Shown here: piece by piece, positions 1 through 63,337 of the stretch
How the letters are laid out: each line of letters starts with the position of its first letter
Position numbering within the stretch: position 1 is the stretch's first letter
Source of the DNA: a virus
DNA length: 64,000 bases
Virus genome (UHGV): UHGV-0091736
Direction: 5' to 3' (one strand)
The notes under the pieces: model-generated
The model's input: only the letters and a program-made list of their open reading frames with translations
What the model was told of the DNA's origin: nothing
Database searches by the model: none
Made by a program: the position numbers and the translations under genes

Positions 1-527
1 GCTTCGAGGGTTTCCCTGTTAACCCCCTACTCCCGCAGGATAGTCTCTACACTTTCCACTTTCGAATCCATCTACAAGCGATTCCAAAGCTCACACCAAA
101 CCTTTCTGCAAGAGCAACACCAGTGCATTCATTGTTAAGCCAGAACTCTTTAGCAGCATCCTGTCTTTCTCTATTTCTGCCAGTGTTTGATTCAATAGCA
201 TGTGCACTACCTTCTAAGATTTCTAGATGGTCAGTATTACAACAAGCTCTATTCTTGCATTTATGGTTAACTTCATAACCGTCAGGAATTTTTCCAAATT
301 CCTCTTCCATGACGTATCTGTGATACATGACCCATTTGCCATTTATCACTTTTCGAAAGTAACCGTCTTTATTTAATTTGTGTGAGATAGGGATGATACA
401 TCCTGTGCTAGTTGTTTCTAGCACTAGATCTTTCTTAGCCATATCACCTCCTAATAGCTTAGCTCGGTATTGCCCTCAACTTAATGGTCGGGTTTCACCG
501 AGTTCACCAACTTTTACATGCACAATG
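1..527 (-). mobile_element. putative group I-type intron in the DNA polymerase gene (partial, runs off window start); carries HNH ORF 47-442
   Basis: Pol ORF loses similarity to T7 gp5 just before motif C (HDE) and ends HCACKSW*; DNA at the break (TGTGCATGTAAAAGTTGGTGAACTCGGTGAAA...GAGCTAAGCTA) closely matches DNA at the primase-helicase break (12440-12548). Confidence 0.5.
47..442 (-). CDS. HNH homing endonuclease (intron-encoded)
   Basis: 131 aa; His-Me finger motif EVNHKCKNRACCNTDHLE; SD AGGAGG upstream; sits inside the polymerase insertion. Confidence 0.7.
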   Translation of the reverse strand: MAKKDLVLETTSTGCIIPISHKLNKDGYFRKVINGKWVMYHRYVMEEEFGKIPDGYEVNHKCKNRACCNTDHLEILEGSAHAIESNTGRNRERQDAAKEFWLNNECTGVALAERFGVSFGIACRWIRKWKV

Positions 528-2225
528 AAGTTTATGCATATCAATTACCTTAGCACAACGAACTCCATCCTTCTCAATCCACTTGTTAAGGAACATCATA
601 GCGTATTTCATAACAACAGCACCAGCACATTGCAGGAGTGTGTTAAGTGCTTTATGAACCATAACTTTACCAGTGGCATCTCGTCTCATTGTAATCTTGC
701 GACCATCAACACCAATCAAGTACCCTTGAGCAGCTTTCTCTGTCATGCGATCAATGAGGATTGCAATACATGGGTTCTCTGCCAAGAAACGTGCTCGCAT
801 CACTGAACCTTCATCAGCCCCGCCACCTACAATTGAACCAAGCTTAGCATCACCAGCACCATAGTTGAATGCATAGATAAATGTCTTAGCATTGTCACGA
901 GTAGGGAGACCAGCAAGTTTCTGGTTGTGGGAGTGGATATCCCCTTCGAGGAGAATATCACGATACATAATAGCAGAAGCTAAACCGCGTTCTGCCAGAG
1001 CTTTCTTAGCTGGATTATTCTCTTCGATTGCTTCAGCAAGCATATCTCTACATTCTTTGATGAGGTAGTGAGCGAGCATACGAAGTTCAAGTCCAGAACC
1101 ATCATACCCTAAGAATACTTCTTTACCAGCGGGTATGTAATATTTGTAAGCACCTACAGGTTTGTCTTTCTTCCCCGGCTTACCTTTCTCGTAAATTACG
1201 TTAGTACCTTTTCGTATATAACAACCATCAGGAACAACGTTAGTAATAACGAAAGGACGAGAGTGATCACTGTCTGAGTTATAGTCAGACTCAAACAAAC
1301 TGCGACACTCGTGACCAAACAAACCACGGGAGGGAATATTAACCACGATACGATGTTTGAATCGAAAAGTCGGCGTAGCGCAGCTGTTAGCTTCTGCCGA
1401 AAGTTTACCATCTTCGCGTTCCTTTGCTATAAGTCCACTGATAAGACCTAGCCTGTGAGCCGCTACAACACGTCTCTTAAGCAAACTTCCAACACTCCCT
1501 AGCTCACCCCCTAACCCTTCTTCAAGAGTCTCCTCGAGGTTTGTAGGAGCTGTAGGCCACTTGTTTGATGTAGCTAGTGCTTTCTTAATCTCATCAAACG
1601 TTACAGGGTTACGGCGATTAGGGTTTAATCCCAAACCAAACACGTAAGCCTTCATGTAATTCTTAGTCTTAAACCTAAAATGCTTTTCTAAGAATTTCTT
1701 GATATCAGCGTCAACCATCTCGGCTGTCTGCTTCTGCTTAGCACTGCCTCTCATCCAAGCAGTGTACCAAGCCTGATATGTTCCATACTTTCGCATGTCT
1801 TTCTTAATTTCGAAAGTATTCCAAGGCTTCTTAGATACGTTAAACTCTGGAGGAAGAAAGCCCTCATCCATAAGAGCTTCTTTAACTCGTGCATCTTTCG
1901 ATGGGTCAAAGTCTACATATTCTACACAGGTGAATGCTCCACCAATGTCTTCTCTCTTCAGCCCAACCCTATCACAATAAGCTTGAGGCCACTTCTGCAA
2001 AGCACCAGACTTCTTAAACGGCTTCATGTAAGTAGAGCCATCTAATCTCATCTTAGGTAAGAGAGGAATCAACTCTCTATCAATATTAACAATAATCTCT
2101 TTAAGGAGGTGAACATACCACCGAGCATTTCTTCGGTTGAAACTCACTCCGTGCTTTGCTTGCTTAGAGATTATATCAGCGACAGTCATCTCTGTCAAAA
2201 ATGGAAGAGCGTCCGGGTTGCTCAC
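504..2225 (-). CDS. DNA polymerase, family A, T7 gp5-like polymerase domain (5' exon; exon probably ends near 525, motif C lies beyond window)
   Basis: 573 aa; motif A YDGSGLELRMLAHYL; motif B RDNAKTFIYAFNYGAGDAKLG; GVDGRKI...HKALNTLLQCAGA matches T7 gp5 C-terminal region; thumb region alignable to T7 thioredoxin-binding segment. Confidence 0.9.
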   Translation of the reverse strand: MSNPDALPFLTEMTVADIISKQAKHGVSFNRRNARWYVHLLKEIIVNIDRELIPLLPKMRLDGSTYMKPFKKSGALQKWPQAYCDRVGLKREDIGGAFTCVEYVDFDPSKDARVKEALMDEGFLPPEFNVSKKPWNTFEIKKDMRKYGTYQAWYTAWMRGSAKQKQTAEMVDADIKKFLEKHFRFKTKNYMKAYVFGLGLNPNRRNPVTFDEIKKALATSNKWPTAPTNLEETLEEGLGGELGSVGSLLKRRVVAAHRLGLISGLIAKEREDGKLSAEANSCATPTFRFKHRIVVNIPSRGLFGHECRSLFESDYNSDSDHSRPFVITNVVPDGCYIRKGTNVIYEKGKPGKKDKPVGAYKYYIPAGKEVFLGYDGSGLELRMLAHYLIKECRDMLAEAIEENNPAKKALAERGLASAIMYRDILLEGDIHSHNQKLAGLPTRDNAKTFIYAFNYGAGDAKLGSIVGGGADEGSVMRARFLAENPCIAILIDRMTEKAAQGYLIGVDGRKITMRRDATGKVMVHKALNTLLQCAGAVVMKYAMMFLNKWIEKDGVRCAKVIDMHKLHCACKSW

Positions 2226-3609: not shown

Positions 3610-3618
3610 TATACATTA
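3610..3618 (-). promoter_or_regulatory. TAATGTATA promoter-like motif (minus strand)
   Basis: same 9-mer occurs at 47721 and 63306 about 35-40 nt upstream of start codons. Confidence 0.4.
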
Positions 3619-3629
3619 TAAGTTACTGT

Positions 3630-5348
3630 TTAAGCTTTCTTTTCCATTGCTTTAACAATCGCCTTACAGAAACCAGAACGAACAATATCATCTGATTCAC
3701 CATCTACAATCTCAGCAAACTCATACAGATCATGTTCATCAATAAAGTTAGTAGCCCAAGTAAGACCACTCTCACGACCACGCATATCATGCTGGTTAGT
3801 ATCACCCATGCAGAACAGCTGAGAGGTTTCTCCCAATCGAGTCATGATTGAGAAGGCTTCATCTTTAGTTGTGTTCTGGAACTCATCCACGATAACAATG
3901 GCATCATTGAAAGAGCGACCACGGAGATATTCCAGAGGTACAAATTCAATGTTACCATTTCCGATTTGGCATTCATAGAACCCCTTACCATATCGCTGAG
4001 TAATAACATCAATGATAGGCATCAGGTATGGTTCAAACTTCTCACGCATCCCCCCCGGAAGTAACCCAAGAGAGTTACCCATGCCGACCGAAGGGCGACT
4101 CAGAATGATCTTCTGAATCTTACCACTCTTCAGTGCATCAATAACTGTGGAAGTGATTACAAAGGTCTTACCACAGTTACCTGTCACGAAAATGTTATCA
4201 TCTCGACGGAGCAACAGAGCACCTGTTGAGGTTGTAAAGCAATATTTAAAACCATCCTCCGTCTTCATCTTTGTGATCACAGCTTTCCCAGATTGTGGGT
4301 TGTTTGGGGTAATACTGATATGTGTCTGTTTAGAGAAATAAACACGATACTCTAGAGATTTACGAGTATATCCACCATACTCCCGACCAACTCTGTCGTA
4401 AGTTATGATAGATGATTTGTAACCACACTGCATTCCTACAAACTGGATATAGTCTGCATCATCTTTATCGGAAGTAAAGAAAGGTGGTAGTCTATTTCCT
4501 TGTAGGGCAAAACCCCCGTCCCAGAATTTAATCTCATCAAAGATGATTTTAGCATCACTCTTGTTACACAAAGGCCAGTCTTTATACCTTTTAGTCGCAC
4601 CTAGAAGAGAGAAAGATATTACATGAAACCCTGTATCATCTGACTTTTCTGAGTAATCTAAATGGAGAGTATCCAATAACTCTTTGAGTCGAGAAATCTT
4701 CCTCTCTTTCTTTAATCTGAAGACGAATCGCGAGGTGGACTCTGTTTCCAAGTGGGCATCAGCCTTGATGGCAACATGAAGACGTAATTCAGGTTCAGAT
4801 AGACCTAAACTTTTCCCTGAAACAAAGTTGGATGTAGTTTTAATTAGACCCTCAAACCCTATCTTCTTCTTGTGGTGCCTTGAAAGAAGATCAGATACCT
4901 TGATTTTGTTCGCTTTGTCTTTATCTCCCTTACGATAATAAACGACATTATGGTCATCACATAACGCCTGAGATATCCCACGGTATGTTTTAAACAAGTT
5001 CAACTCTTTACACTCTTGTTTAATATAAGCTACAGGTTTTTCTAAATGAGACTCTCCTGTGGTTAAGTTTACTGCTGTTATTAAATCACCTTCCACATAG
5101 TCAGAAATCTTTTTCCATCCAAACTCTGAGAGAAACTCGGTATCCTTATCAACACAGCCCGCAGGAGCGTCTGTGAACACAACTTGTTTAGTCTTAATAG
5201 CATTGAGTAGCTCAGACTGAAACTGGTTCTGAGGGACTACAGGCTTTGCTAAAACCACCTCTTCATACTCTCGCTTACCCTTACGAGTAACAAGTGCTTC
5301 CCGACGAAGGTCTTTCCGTGATTCTTTCCTTGATTGACGACGACTCAT
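3630..5348 (-). CDS. phoH: PhoH-like ATPase interrupted by an intein
   Basis: 572 aa; P-loop reconstituted as DAPAG + CGKT across the insert; PhoH motifs LSRPSVGMGNSLGLLPGG, VIVDEFQNTT, MGDTNQHD. Confidence 0.8.
   Translation of the reverse strand: MSRRQSRKESRKDLRREALVTRKGKREYEEVVLAKPVVPQNQFQSELLNAIKTKQVVFTDAPAGCVDKDTEFLSEFGWKKISDYVEGDLITAVNLTTGESHLEKPVAYIKQECKELNLFKTYRGISQALCDDHNVVYYRKGDKDKANKIKVSDLLSRHHKKKIGFEGLIKTTSNFVSGKSLGLSEPELRLHVAIKADAHLETESTSRFVFRLKKERKISRLKELLDTLHLDYSEKSDDTGFHVISFSLLGATKRYKDWPLCNKSDAKIIFDEIKFWDGGFALQGNRLPPFFTSDKDDADYIQFVGMQCGYKSSIITYDRVGREYGGYTRKSLEYRVYFSKQTHISITPNNPQSGKAVITKMKTEDGFKYCFTTSTGALLLRRDDNIFVTGNCGKTFVITSTVIDALKSGKIQKIILSRPSVGMGNSLGLLPGGMREKFEPYLMPIIDVITQRYGKGFYECQIGNGNIEFVPLEYLRGRSFNDAIVIVDEFQNTTKDEAFSIMTRLGETSQLFCMGDTNQHDMRGRESGLTWATNFIDEHDLYEFAEIVDGESDDIVRSGFCKAIVKAMEKKA
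4176..5156 (-). mobile_element. intein (327 aa) inside PhoH Walker A motif
   Basis: Begins C-VDKDTEF (block A like), TGESH (block B TxxH), ends FVTGN followed by +1 Cys of CGKT; in frame, no stops. Confidence 0.6.
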
Positions 5349-27762: not shown

Positions 27763-27867
27763 AACTACCTCCTATTTGATTTGGCGCACCGTGTAGGACT
27801 CCAACCTACAACCTATTTCTTAGAAGGAAATTGCTCTCTGCAATTGAGCTAACGGCGCTTATTTCAG

Positions 27868-33755: not shown

Positions 33756-34570
33756 CTTTCAATTGTAAGGGCGCTATTGCCCCGCTCTCTATGAGCTTGT
33801 TTAAGTCACTATTAACTTAACTCTAACCACTCACTTTTTAAGTAGTTACAGGTAAGCGGGGCGGTCTTATCAGGAGTTAACCTTGCCGCCCCCTTATCCG
33901 TGATGTTTCATCTGGTATCTTTAATTAGTCGCTATAAATAAAGCCGACCTGATAGCGATGATCAATCATCACAATAAGGCAGTGCGTCCGACTCTAATTA
34001 GTTACGTTTATTGTAACCGTCGGCAATATCGTCTACTTTGCTTTCGCTCTCGCCTATCCTTTTGTATTAACTCTCAATCGCTAGTCATCGCCCACTACGG
34101 GATACTATTGCGAAAGAGTCATTAACCGTCTAATATTCCGACGTTTTATATCTTTCAGCGAGTTTACTACATAAACCGACTATGTACTTTCATCATAAGA
34201 CGAATCTCAAGCCGTTCACATCGTAAACGTTCACACTAAACCTTATTGTTAAATAGCAATTTGCCACTTTTTAACCGCTCCCCGCCGCCCTCAATTGGGC
34301 GTTAATTTGTCGGACTTGTCTACCCTGATTAACTTCTTTCACTGTAGCGCCTTGTTAGCGATGACCGCCGCTACCCTTAACCGTGGGCGATTAGCTTAAG
34401 CCTTTGCGTGCACTCAGTGAATCCGTTTATCAGTGGTGACGTTTCCAGTAAGGGATTGCAAGACTGTTTCCTCTGATAGTTTAGAGAGCCTTACATCGTT
34501 TTATCTGGTACGCTTTCCGATGGTTATTATCATCAAGCATATTCAACCGATATAGAAGAACGTTTAAATT

Positions 34571-40087: not shown

Positions 40088-40699
40088 ATGTCACTAGATA
40101 AACAAATTTATGAAGCTCTAACTGGTAACAATCTTAGTGTAGATGAAAAGAAAGCACTATTGAATATGTTGAAAGAGCGTGACCAATGGAGGAAGTATAA
40201 TAGGATTTTGTCTTTCAAGGCGTATGACTTCCAAAAGAAATTTTATGCAGCAGGATTGAAGCATAGGTTCAGGTTTCTCTGTGCGGCTAACCGAGTTGGG
40301 AAAAGTTACAGTGAAGCGTACGAATTCGCATGCCACGTTACCGGAAGATATCCAACATGGTGGACCGGTCATAAGTTTAAGAGGCCAATACTTGCGTGGG
40401 CTGTAGGGATTACAGGGGACTCAACAAGGAAAGTATTGCAAAAAGAATTATTTGGTACACCAATTGGAAAGGACACTAATCTGCTAGGTACTGGAGTTAT
40501 TCCACGAGATGCAATAGTAATAGATACTATAGAAAGGGATGGTAATAAGCTACAGATAGTACAGATTAAGCACCAGAATGAAAGGGGTGAGTTTGATGGA
40601 TTAAGTACGTTAGAATTTCGATCAACACAACAGGGTGAACATACACTGATGGGTGCTACTGTTGATTATATATGGCTGGATGAAGAGGATTGTATATAA
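40088..40699 (+). CDS. terminase large subunit, 5' exon (ATPase Walker A/B)
   Basis: Walker A AANRVGKS; Walker B YIWLDEE; ORF stops 5 codons after DEE. Confidence 0.8.
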   Translation: MSLDKQIYEALTGNNLSVDEKKALLNMLKERDQWRKYNRILSFKAYDFQKKFYAAGLKHRFRFLCAANRVGKSYSEAYEFACHVTGRYPTWWTGHKFKRPILAWAVGITGDSTRKVLQKELFGTPIGKDTNLLGTGVIPRDAIVIDTIERDGNKLQIVQIKHQNERGEFDGLSTLEFRSTQQGEHTLMGATVDYIWLDEEDCI

Positions 40700-41479
40700 C
40701 ATAGCTAGAAGTGTTGGTCCTCTATAAACTCGGTGAATTGCTGGAACCTCTGACCCTTAAGTGGAAGACAATCAGCAGCGAAGATAATGTATAACTTACT
40801 CATGATACATTATAACGTTCAACGACTATCGAAAGCATAGCCCGTATGGGTGAAGAAGCAAGTAGAGTAGATACCAAGTGGTATCGAAGTGCCGAGCAAA
40901 ACTAAGGAGTGATACATTGGGTAGACCTAACAAATCATTAGATTCAACCAAAACATGTTCAGTGTGCTCTGTAACAAAAGACATAGAATCTTTTGCAATA
41001 AGAACAAGAGCAATATCCACTGGAGAGGTTAGAATCTACCGTAAGTCTCAATGCAAAGAGTGCATGGCTGAGATGAGAAGGGATTGGGGTAAGAATAATC
41101 CAGATAAGATTCGTGAGAATAATAATTCTCCAAATAAGAGAGCTTGCGATAATGCAAGACGGGCTGGATTAGAAACTGCTTCTATTATCAGAGATGATGA
41201 GTATAATAAATTTGTTATGGAAGAAATGTATGAACTTCGAAATCTTAGAACAAAGGAAACTGGATTTCAATGGCATGTAGATCACATAATCCCTTTAAAA
41301 GGTAATAACGTATGTGGTTTTCATGTCTGGTATAACTTGCAGGTAGTTCCTGCTGTTTTCAACCTATCTAAGAGTAATAGTTTTGATGATATAGTCTGCT
41401 CTGCATGGAAACATGCAGCTGGAGAAATCCGGGATGAGATTAACGATCTTGTCTGAACAACACGCCATATGAGTCTATG
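40691..41479 (+). mobile_element. putative group I-type intron splitting the large terminase gene; carries HNH ORF
   Basis: ATPase motifs resume at AIFAQCV...TATPENG in 41477 ORF; no SD before exon 2; insert has AAACTCGGTGAA block shared with the polymerase and helicase insertions. Confidence 0.6.
40878..41456 (+). CDS. HNH homing endonuclease (intron-encoded; start may be TTG at 40917)
   Basis: Zn-finger CSVCS...CKEC plus HNH core [38 protein letters not shown]. Confidence 0.7.
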
Positions 41480-42403
41480 GCTATATTCGCACAGTGCGTC
41501 ACACGTACACTCACAACTAAAGGTCTAGTTACAATTACAGCTACACCAGAGAACGGTTTAACTGAACTGGTAGATAAATTTATGAAAGGTGAAGGGGATG
41601 AGAACACAGGTTCTCTATATTTCCAGAATGCTTCTTGGTGGGATGCTCATGCAGACCTAGGTGGACATATCACTGACCAAGATATAAAAGATATGACTGA
41701 AGGTATTCCAGCGTGGCAGTTAGAGATGCGTTCGAAAGGTATGCCATTGTTAGGAAGTGGTTTGATATATGATGTATCGGATGACACAATTAAATGTGAA
41801 CCATTCGAAATTCCTGATACGTGGAAACGTGTCTGTGCAATTGATATTGGTATTGATCACCCAACTGCTGCTGTTTGGACAGCTTACGATGCAAACACGG
41901 ATACTGTCTATGTTTACGACTCATATAAAGAAGGTGGCTTTACTCCAGTGTATCATGCTCCAGCTATTAATGGTCGTGGTCAGTGGATTCCTGTCATCCT
42001 ACCGCATGATGCGGACAATATTGAGAAAGGTAGTGGATCATCTGTTGCTCAATTCTATAAGAATGCAGGAGTTAATGTACAGAGTGAGACCTTCTACAAC
42101 AAAATTGGAATGGATGGTAAAAAGAACTTCTTTGTAGAACCCGGAATCACAGATATCCGAGAAAGAATGATGAGTGGACGCTTTAAAATCTTTAACACAG
42201 CTGCTAACGCTAAGCTATTCGAAGAGAAAGCTAGATATCACCGCAAGGTTGGTAAGATTATTAAAGAACATGATGACTTAATGGATGCAATGCGCTATTC
42301 AGCGTGCTCTGTTACACATCGTGGTCGCTCTAAGCATGACGTTAGCTACGGAAGTGCTTCTCTGTATGAGGCAAACGTAAGCAGATGGAATCAGAGTTAC
42401 TAA
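41477..42403 (+). CDS. terminase large subunit, 3' exon (ATPase motif III and nuclease domain)
   Basis: TATPENG coupling motif; CAIDIGIDHPTAAVWTAYD...VYVYDSY nuclease-type acidic motifs. Confidence 0.8.
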   Translation: MAIFAQCVTRTLTTKGLVTITATPENGLTELVDKFMKGEGDENTGSLYFQNASWWDAHADLGGHITDQDIKDMTEGIPAWQLEMRSKGMPLLGSGLIYDVSDDTIKCEPFEIPDTWKRVCAIDIGIDHPTAAVWTAYDANTDTVYVYDSYKEGGFTPVYHAPAINGRGQWIPVILPHDADNIEKGSGSSVAQFYKNAGVNVQSETFYNKIGMDGKKNFFVEPGITDIRERMMSGRFKIFNTAANAKLFEEKARYHRKVGKIIKEHDDLMDAMRYSACSVTHRGRSKHDVSYGSASLYEANVSRWNQSY

Positions 42404-47720: not shown

Positions 47721-47729
47721 TAATGTATA
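47721..47729 (+). promoter_or_regulatory. TAATGTATA promoter-like motif
   Basis: 34 nt upstream of ATG 47763; same 9-mer at 63306 and on minus strand at 3610-3618. Confidence 0.45.
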
Positions 47730-63292: not shown

Positions 63293-63337
63293 GTCCTGCC
63301 TTCTATAATGTATATAGGGGGTAGGACATTTTTATTT
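63293..63337 (+). promoter_or_regulatory. hairpin enclosing TAATGTATA motif followed by T-run
   Basis: GTCCTGCC...GGTAGGAC stem with loop TTCTATAATGTATATAGGG (motif 63306-63314), then ATTTTTATTT. Confidence 0.4.

Follow-up and report, generated by a model that had tools for sequence, protein, structure and literature searches.

A putative mobile group I intron with an encoded nuclease in the large terminase gene of a phiEco32-like phage genome

The interrupted terminase gene

The subject of this work is a 774-nucleotide (nt) insertion in the gene for the large terminase subunit (TerL), located in a stretch of 64,000 nt of the UHGV virus genome UHGV-0091736. This stretch is referred to below as the window, and all coordinates are those of the whole stretch. 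The TerL region is about 93% identical to that of phiEco32-like coliphages (Kuravirus, Gordonclarkvirinae), and comparison of the whole window with phiEco32 reveals an otherwise complete-looking genome of the phiEco32 type. Relative to phiEco32, clean insertions with intact flanks are found in TerL (40691-41464), in the primase/helicase gene (11935-12554) and in a PhoH-like gene (approximately 4177-5152), and the polymerase gene passes into DNA foreign to phiEco32 from position 534 down to position 1 of the window. Positions of the features under discussion are given in Table 1.

Table 1. Features of the TerL locus and of the other predicted introns in the window
Feature	Position	Strand	Remarks
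TerL exon 1	40088-40690	+	201 codons; 99.5% amino-acid identity to phiEco32 TerL residues 1-201
Putative homing co-conversion tract	40265-40690	+	426 nt of exon, 76.8% identity to phiEco32
Predicted group I intron (IA2-like)	40691-41464	+	774 nt; in-frame TAA 40697-40699; terminal G 41464
Internal guide sequence GUCCUCU	40717-40723	+	7-base-pair P1 with exon 40684-40690 AGAGGAU
5' ribozyme core	40729-40903	+	Rfam alignment, orthologue alignment, pair counts
P3	40729-40733; P3' 40892-40896	+	
P4	40739-40744/40772-40777	+	
P5	40749-40751/40766-40768	+	
P6	40778-40780/40816-40818	+	
P6a	40784-40792/40805-40813	+	
TAATGTATA, candidate gp36 promoter	40785-40793	+	exact match to the phiEco32 gp36 single-element promoter
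P7	40824-40828 (5' strand); P7' 41392-41396	+	
P7.1 hairpin	40841-40850	+	read from orthologue alignment
P7.2 hairpin	40870-40885	+	read from orthologue alignment
P8	40897-40903 (5' strand); P8' 41379-41385	+	
Putative homing endonuclease open reading frame, His-Me/HNH type	40917-41456	+	179 residues; TTG start; Shine-Dalgarno AAGGAG 40904-40909
3' ribozyme core	41379-41464	+	terminal G 41464
P9	41401-41407/41412-41418	+	GAAA loop
P9.1	41419-41423/41428-41432	+	GAAA loop
P9.2	41433-41440/41446-41453	+	
TerL exon 2	41465-42403	+	PYESMAIF...; 98.4% amino-acid identity to phiEco32 TerL residues 202-513
Predicted group I intron, DNA polymerase gene	1-534	-	HNH_3 reading frame 47-442 in P6; phrog_6254; runs past window start
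Predicted group I intron, primase/helicase gene	11935-12554	-	HNH_3 reading frame 12113-12448 in P6 loop

The upstream part of the gene encodes the Walker A (CAANRVGKS) and Walker B (DYIWLDEED) motifs and matches the Pfam family Terminase_6N (expectation value, E, of 4.8e-10). Its open reading frame (ORF), 40088-40699, stops two codons past ...WLDEED, at a TAA codon (40697-40699) lying inside the insertion. The downstream part, represented by ORF 41477-42403, resumes with the ITATPENG motif and an RNaseH-like nuclease domain, and matches Terminase_6C (E 3.2e-14). Alignment to phiEco32 stops exactly at 40690 (GAAGAGGAT), where exon 1 terminates at a codon boundary in U, and is taken up again at 41465 (CCATATGAG), which makes the boundaries of the insertion unique with respect to the uninterrupted phiEco32 gene. 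When the insertion is excised, ...DYIWLDEED-PYESMAIF... is read in frame and is collinear with the 513-residue TerL of phiEco32. In the phage collection searched (50,697 records), TerL was uninterrupted in all 125 records of related phages, and the intron was found in none of them.

An earlier note on this DNA, made from its letters alone, had described TerL as interrupted between the Walker B and TATPENG motifs, with two motif-bearing ORFs separated by an HNH-type one, and had proposed comparison with uninterrupted relatives and modelling of an intron structure as checks. The phiEco32 alignment, the two terminase domain matches and a DH..N..N His-Me/HNH motif in the intervening ORF confirm this description; the comparison gave a clean insertion against the 125 records, and the modelling gave a group I match and covariation in five orthologous introns, as described below. 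The span claimed there, 40691-41479, was exact at its start and 15 nt too long at its end, because the next ATG had been used rather than the true end, 41464. An intein was rejected as the nature of the insertion, given the stop two codons into it and further stops in the TerL frame. Phage EcP-vB has an extra 166 nt between TerL and the portal gene; these were rejected as an intron remnant, as they lie outside TerL, whose exons are contiguous in that phage.

Ribozyme structure and orthologous introns

The Rfam model RF00028 matches positions 40672-41418 over its full length (1-253) with 45.0 bits and E 5.9e-10, the 478-nt P8 loop and the P7.1/P7.2 insert being scored as insertions. The score is a little below the Rfam cut-off of 50 bits. 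Together with the helices listed in Table 1 and the covariation described below, the match leads us to regard the identity of the element as a group I intron as established in silico. The match surfaced only under E-value thresholds; a scan of the whole window at the Rfam gathering threshold returned no match. That scan mode can miss true matches, since it also overlooked a tRNA-Arg (anticodon tct) on the minus strand at 27782-27858, which is found with 60 bits by the E-value scan, is matched by ARAGORN and occurs also in phiEco32.

At the 5' splice site, the predicted P1 helix contains the wobble pair U40690-G40717, and this U-G is invariant in the five orthologous introns, in which pair 10-47 is either GC or GU. 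Between P7 and P3', a 58-nt insert flanked by GACUA and CCGAG contains hairpins P7.1 and P7.2; the AAGU loop of P7.2 is constant, and its stem is wholly different from one lineage to the next. Hairpins P7.1 and P7.2 together with a P9.1/P9.2 extension characterise subgroup IA2, to which introns of T-even phages belong, as defined in the literature, including PMC3984707; both features are predicted in the TerL intron. Moreover, the final 77 nt of the core show about 85% identity to cores from T4-like phage introns and from some polymerase introns of phages. We consider it very probable that the 774 nt represent a group I intron that is mobile and belongs to the phage IA2 (T4-like) type.

According to the mechanism known for this family, TerL would be transcribed through the intron, and the RNA would fold into a ribozyme. 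An exogenous G would attack after U40690, held in P1 by the guide sequence; the freed exon 1 would then attack after G41464, and ligation of the exons, with a junction reading ...GAAGAGGAU-CCAUAUGAG..., would restore the message for a normal 513-residue large terminase. The stop codon located two codons into the intron would keep ribosomes off the ribozyme.

Orthologous introns occupy the identical TerL site (GAAGAGGAU/...G/CC, slashes marking the splice sites) in four independent metagenome lineages, represented by contigs L008, L004/L005/L006, L009/L010 and L011 (contigs L004-L011 and L064 are those found with terminase introns). Each contains a nuclease 59-93% identical to that of the window, placed between the Terminase_6N and Terminase_6C halves, with a portal gene of the SU10 type behind them; homologues of the ORF as close as these were found in metagenome assemblies only. 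RF00028 scores are 63.7 bits for L004 and 51.5 bits for L009, which exceed the Rfam cut-off, 48.7 bits for L008 and 45.5 bits for L011. Every orthologue has the U-G pair at its 5' splice site and ends in G, and each has an in-frame stop within 0-2 codons.

When the five introns were aligned without the ORF loop, the proposed structure comprised 11 helices and 62 pairs, that is, 310 cells, of which 97.7% pair, and 19 of the 62 pairs are changed on both sides. None of 500 shuffles scored as high, and sliding the partners by 1-3 columns reduced pairing to 32-44%, with 0-5 two-sided changes. All six pairs of P9.2 covary, and compensatory changes are found also in P3, P5, P6, P6a, P8, P9 and P9.1; P4 and P7 are invariant and hence uninformative.

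A scan of IMG/VR with the conserved core AAACTYGGTKAATTGCTGG gave 51 loci, mostly introns of this class and none of them in TerL, so this motif marks the intron class and not a specific relationship. Scans of IMG/VR and of the JGI metagenomes with the nuclease profile yielded hundreds of distant family members and one more TerL case (L064). In L064 (approximately 2250-2947) and in L007 (3729-4449), contigs of distant SU10-like phages, a 55%-identical nuclease is found in a differently organised group I intron (Rfam 73.6 bits), in which the whole core is located upstream of the ORF, and the ORF stops 8-9 nt before the 3' splice site. This variant is inserted 9 nt further upstream (WLD/EED), again with the U-G pair and the terminal G. 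It indicates an association in which nuclease family and TerL stretch stay constant and the ribozyme scaffold is what varies. A separate observation is that L009 (1-1120) and L010 have a second group I intron further upstream in TerL (Rfam match at L009 1-159), followed in L009 by a GIY-YIG-type ORF at 202-702; this terminase gene thus has at least two introns.

The encoded nuclease, the upstream tract and alternative readings

The ORF of the intron most likely starts with TTG at 40917 rather than GTG at 40878, as AAGGAG is found 7 nt upstream of the former, with which a TTG or ATG start aligns in relatives. It begins in the P8 loop and ends 8 nt short of the 3' splice site, its last 25 codons being encoded by P8', J8/7, P7', P9, P9.1 and P9.2. 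Conservation of the peptide DIVCS merely reflects the invariant GAUAUAGUCUGCUCU that encodes it; beyond this sequence, frames and stops vary among the lineages. Overlap of an ORF with the ribozyme core is a known arrangement (PMC3984707).

The predicted protein has an N-terminal zinc ribbon (CxxC at residues 14-17 and 46-49) and an HVDH...N...N motif, in which D122, H123, N140, N149 and N154 are invariant in nine homologues. It matches phrog_1035, 'endonuclease VII' (E 4.4e-20), and gives a weak profile match to the His-Me restriction enzyme Hpy99I (E 0.004); the distant homologues P0009, P0010 and P0017 carry PF01844/PF14279. Pfam matches of the protein itself, to Cas12f TNB and His_Me_b4a2, are at the level of noise. 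Support for the assignment to HNH made in the earlier note is thus at the level of the superfamily. An intact ORF is found in all the lineages, and the excess of silent over replacement codon differences between the window and L008 (23 versus 12) indicates that it is maintained.

Within the 5' strand of P6a, at a distance of 124 nt before the start codon of the nuclease, lies TAATGTATA, a candidate promoter that matches exactly the single-element promoter of the phiEco32 sigma factor gp36. Promoters of this kind, of which there are only six in phiEco32, give transcripts starting 6-8 nt downstream of the element (PMC8948821, PMC4281155). The window contains four exact copies against 0.61 expected; the other three, at 3610-3618 (minus strand), 47721-47729 and 63306-63314, correspond to copies in phiEco32, and each lies directly upstream of a gene. 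Among the orthologous introns, that of L008 retains the element and that of L004 has it with one base changed; those of the more distant L009 and L011 lack it. Tentatively, and with more doubt than confidence, we suggest that the P6a 5' strand may double as a gp36 promoter, from which the nuclease would be produced late, from a 5'-truncated RNA starting at about 40800. Such an RNA would not contain P1-P6 and would be unable to form the ribozyme, which would resolve the conflict between translation of the ORF and folding of the 3' core that it overlaps. The mobile intron would then have captured, within a structural helix, the private promoter of the phage sigma factor, and so have adapted to its host phage. 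Gott et al. reportedly described in 1988 late or middle promoters that belong to the ORFs of T4 introns and lie inside these introns; TAATGTATA would be their counterpart in the TerL intron.

The exon DNA preceding the intron probably differs in origin from its surroundings, as judged from identity to phiEco32, which is 99.4% at 40088-40264 and 97-100% in exon 2. The 426 nt between them contain 99 differences, 98 of them silent and one changing an amino acid, with 88% at third codon positions. Among 138 matching records of the phage collection, the best match to this tract reaches 79.8%; the equivalent 441 nt on the 3' side of the intron are matched at up to 99.8%, and 27 records reach at least 99%. 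The intron-bearing L008 has the tract as well, with 4 differences from the window in the last 170 nt. In the comparison of window 40265-40690 with L008 1-429, 28 differences are found in the 260 nt further upstream, and this pattern suggests nested conversion tracts left by separate homing events. The distribution of the intron is patchy: it is present in five separate metagenome lineages and in none of the 125 sequenced relatives. The tract is probably exon DNA imported with the intron by homing co-conversion.

Several observations speak against the interpretation of the element as a functional mobile intron. Its RF00028 score of 45 bits is below the curated gathering cut-off of 50 bits, and P10 is weak (5 of 6 pairs, including two wobbles, and one mismatch). 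Pfam HNH models PF01844 and PF13392 do not match the nuclease at E <= 1, and its AlphaFold2 model, built from a 9-sequence alignment, is of low confidence (predicted local distance difference test, pLDDT, 64.5; below 50 in the catalytic half); Foldseek comparison of this poor model with the PDB produced no match at E < 1. The tract might in principle be an unrelated recombination patch ending by chance at the intron, and splicing is what we infer from the sequence. One may ask, then, whether TerL could function as two separately translated polypeptides, split by a free-standing HNH gene and assembling non-covalently. Such a case is nrdA of a T4-like phage, which is split by a mobE-type endonuclease and whose halves assemble in this manner. 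Automatic gene callers do give two TerL ORFs and a nuclease ORF in all the metagenome contigs, and an ATG is available at 41477, 12 nt into exon 2. However, the methionine at this position is an ordinary conserved internal residue, present in the uninterrupted TerL of phiEco32, and no Shine-Dalgarno sequence precedes it. The break divides the ATPase fold itself, after Walker B and before the motif that follows, and the insertion displays ribozyme covariation outside its coding part, for which a free-standing gene would have no need. We consider the two-polypeptide arrangement highly improbable.

The low Rfam score and the weak P10 would also be expected of a decayed intron that does not splice, TerL being then a pseudogene in a defective or satellite-dependent phage genome. 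Such decay is hard to reconcile with the strong purifying selection on the exons, seen in the single replacement among the 99 upstream differences and in the amino-acid identity of exon 2 (98.4%), or with the core helices, all intact, whose compensatory changes are kept across five lineages. As the rest of the window looks like a complete phiEco32-type genome, this explanation seems to us very remote as well. A third view would accept the intron as real but regard it as immobile, and the divergent tract as an ordinary recombination mosaic unrelated to homing. Genomes of the phiEco32 type are indeed mosaic elsewhere in the window, and of the two ends of the tract just one coincides with the intron. 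Yet the tract ends no more than 6 nt from the insertion site, no sequenced relative has it without the intron, L008 shares both, and the nuclease ORF is intact and conserved; immobility thus appears unlikely.

The simplest reading, that of a mobile intron, would be that homing brought it into a phiEco32-type genome from a donor not yet sampled, and that about 0.43 kb of upstream exon was co-converted on that one side. The nuclease would cut or nick intron-less TerL alleles of co-infecting relatives near the Walker B codons, and repair from the intron-bearing genome would copy the intron along with flanking exon DNA, leaving the silent-site-divergent tract as a footprint of homing from an unsequenced donor lineage. 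That the tract lies on one side would point to cutting or nicking upstream.

Other interrupted genes and known systems

It had also been proposed in the earlier note that three essential genes of this genome are interrupted by related elements sharing an AAACTCGGTGAA block. The polymerase, primase/helicase and TerL genes are indeed all predicted to contain group I introns with HNH-type ORFs, but the proposed relationship among these introns is not supported. The block is exact only once, at 40726. The copy in the polymerase insertion (GAACTCGGTGAA, 494-505, minus strand) has one mismatch and that in the helicase insertion (GAACTCAGGGAA, 12515-12526, minus strand) has three, and a further copy with one mismatch (34154-34165, minus strand) is located in phiEco32-collinear DNA, in no insertion. 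In the Rfam alignments the block falls on P3 and J3/4 in the TerL intron and on J3/4, P4 and J4/5 in the helicase intron; the polymerase block is placed as in the latter by sequence analogy. The copies thus do not occupy the same structural position of the ribozyme. A blastn comparison of the TerL intron with the other two gave no similarity at E < 0.1, the TerL intron has its ORF in P8 where the others have theirs in P6, and the nucleases belong to different families (phrog_1035, phrog_59/959 and phrog_6254). The possibility that the three introns are recent copies of one another was rejected on these grounds, and all they appear to have in common is the class of phage group I introns.

The helicase intron, with U at the end of the exon, G at the end of the intron and Rfam scores of 40.6-48.6 bits, was found as a whole in no record of the phage collection. 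Introns annotated in FH3, 1-6af, PE006, ECBP2 and SU7 are 84-98% identical to the polymerase intron; for the polymerase introns of T7-like phages the identity is about 67%. A different kind of insertion is that in the PhoH-like ATPase gene (ORF 3630-5348, minus strand), where 327 residues are added in frame within the P-loop (window 4176-5156; DAPAG/CVDK...FVTGN/CGKT, compared with DAPAGCGKT in phiEco32). Its relatives (33-45% identity) are inserted in PhoH, RtcB and primase/helicase genes of unrelated phages, and in this respect it behaves like an intein family; Pfam and PDB sequence searches detected no intein domain, and the penultimate residue is G, where H is usual.

The closest known systems are the IA2 introns in the td, nrdB and nrdD (sunY) genes of T4, with which the TerL intron shares the P7.1/P7.2 and P9.1/P9.2 elements, GAAA loops on P9 and the early stop; the similarity over 77 nt mentioned above is to cores annotated within thymidylate synthase genes of T4-like phages or beside them. 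It differs from them in its host gene, in the location of the ORF, which lies in P8 and overlaps the 3' core instead of being placed in P6a or P9.1, and in the nuclease, which is of the endonuclease VII/Hpy99I-like His-Me type and not GIY-YIG. As regards terminase genes, Mikkonen and Alatossava are said to have described in 1995 a group I intron in that of Lactobacillus phage LL-H. Among Bastillevirinae, 5 of 52 TerL genes have group I introns, and splicing was shown for that of SIOphi (PMC11878797); terminases are also named as typical intron targets in a review (PMC3984707). LL-H and Bastillevirinae have the kind of element and the kind of gene in common with the phage described here; their TerL family is another one, and these are myo- and siphoviruses of Gram-positive hosts.

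An HNH-type enzyme in a phage group I intron is found also in the polymerase genes of SPO1, SP82 and Bastille (the nickases I-HmuI, I-HmuII and I-BasI), systems in which exclusion or co-conversion of flanking markers occurs; the gene and the HNH subfamily are different there. In Bastille and SPO1, introns associated with related enzymes are inserted into one conserved stretch of motif-coding DNA, at sites separated by a few nucleotides, and the intron type of the window and that of L007/L064, 9 nt apart, would be a parallel to this. The polymerase intron of Kuravirus and T7-like phages (ECBP2, SU7, FH3; 'homing endonuclease / DNA polymerase') is present in this very genome, at window 1-534, and phiEco32-like phages are thus already known to carry group I introns. 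It is distinct from the TerL intron, with which it has no blastn similarity, in having its ORF in P6 and in the nuclease type (HNH_3, phrog_6254).

A mobile group I intron with a homing nuclease is a well-known selfish element, and the TerL intron would leave the understanding of how such elements work unchanged. Its occurrence in TerL of the phiEco32 group was previously unrecorded; searches of open-access papers for introns of phiEco32 or Kuravirus brought up no description of it. For annotation, the finding would mean that TerL, here and in several metagenomic relatives, is one protein of 513 residues, where automatic gene calls on those contigs show two fragments and a 'hypothetical protein'. 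It would add a terminase intron to the phiEco32/SU10 coliphages, a group under development for therapy and engineering. Finally, three things may be seen here in a clean natural case: exon co-conversion that is asymmetric, an endonuclease ORF overlapping the ribozyme core, and one nuclease family associated with two differently built introns 9 nt apart.

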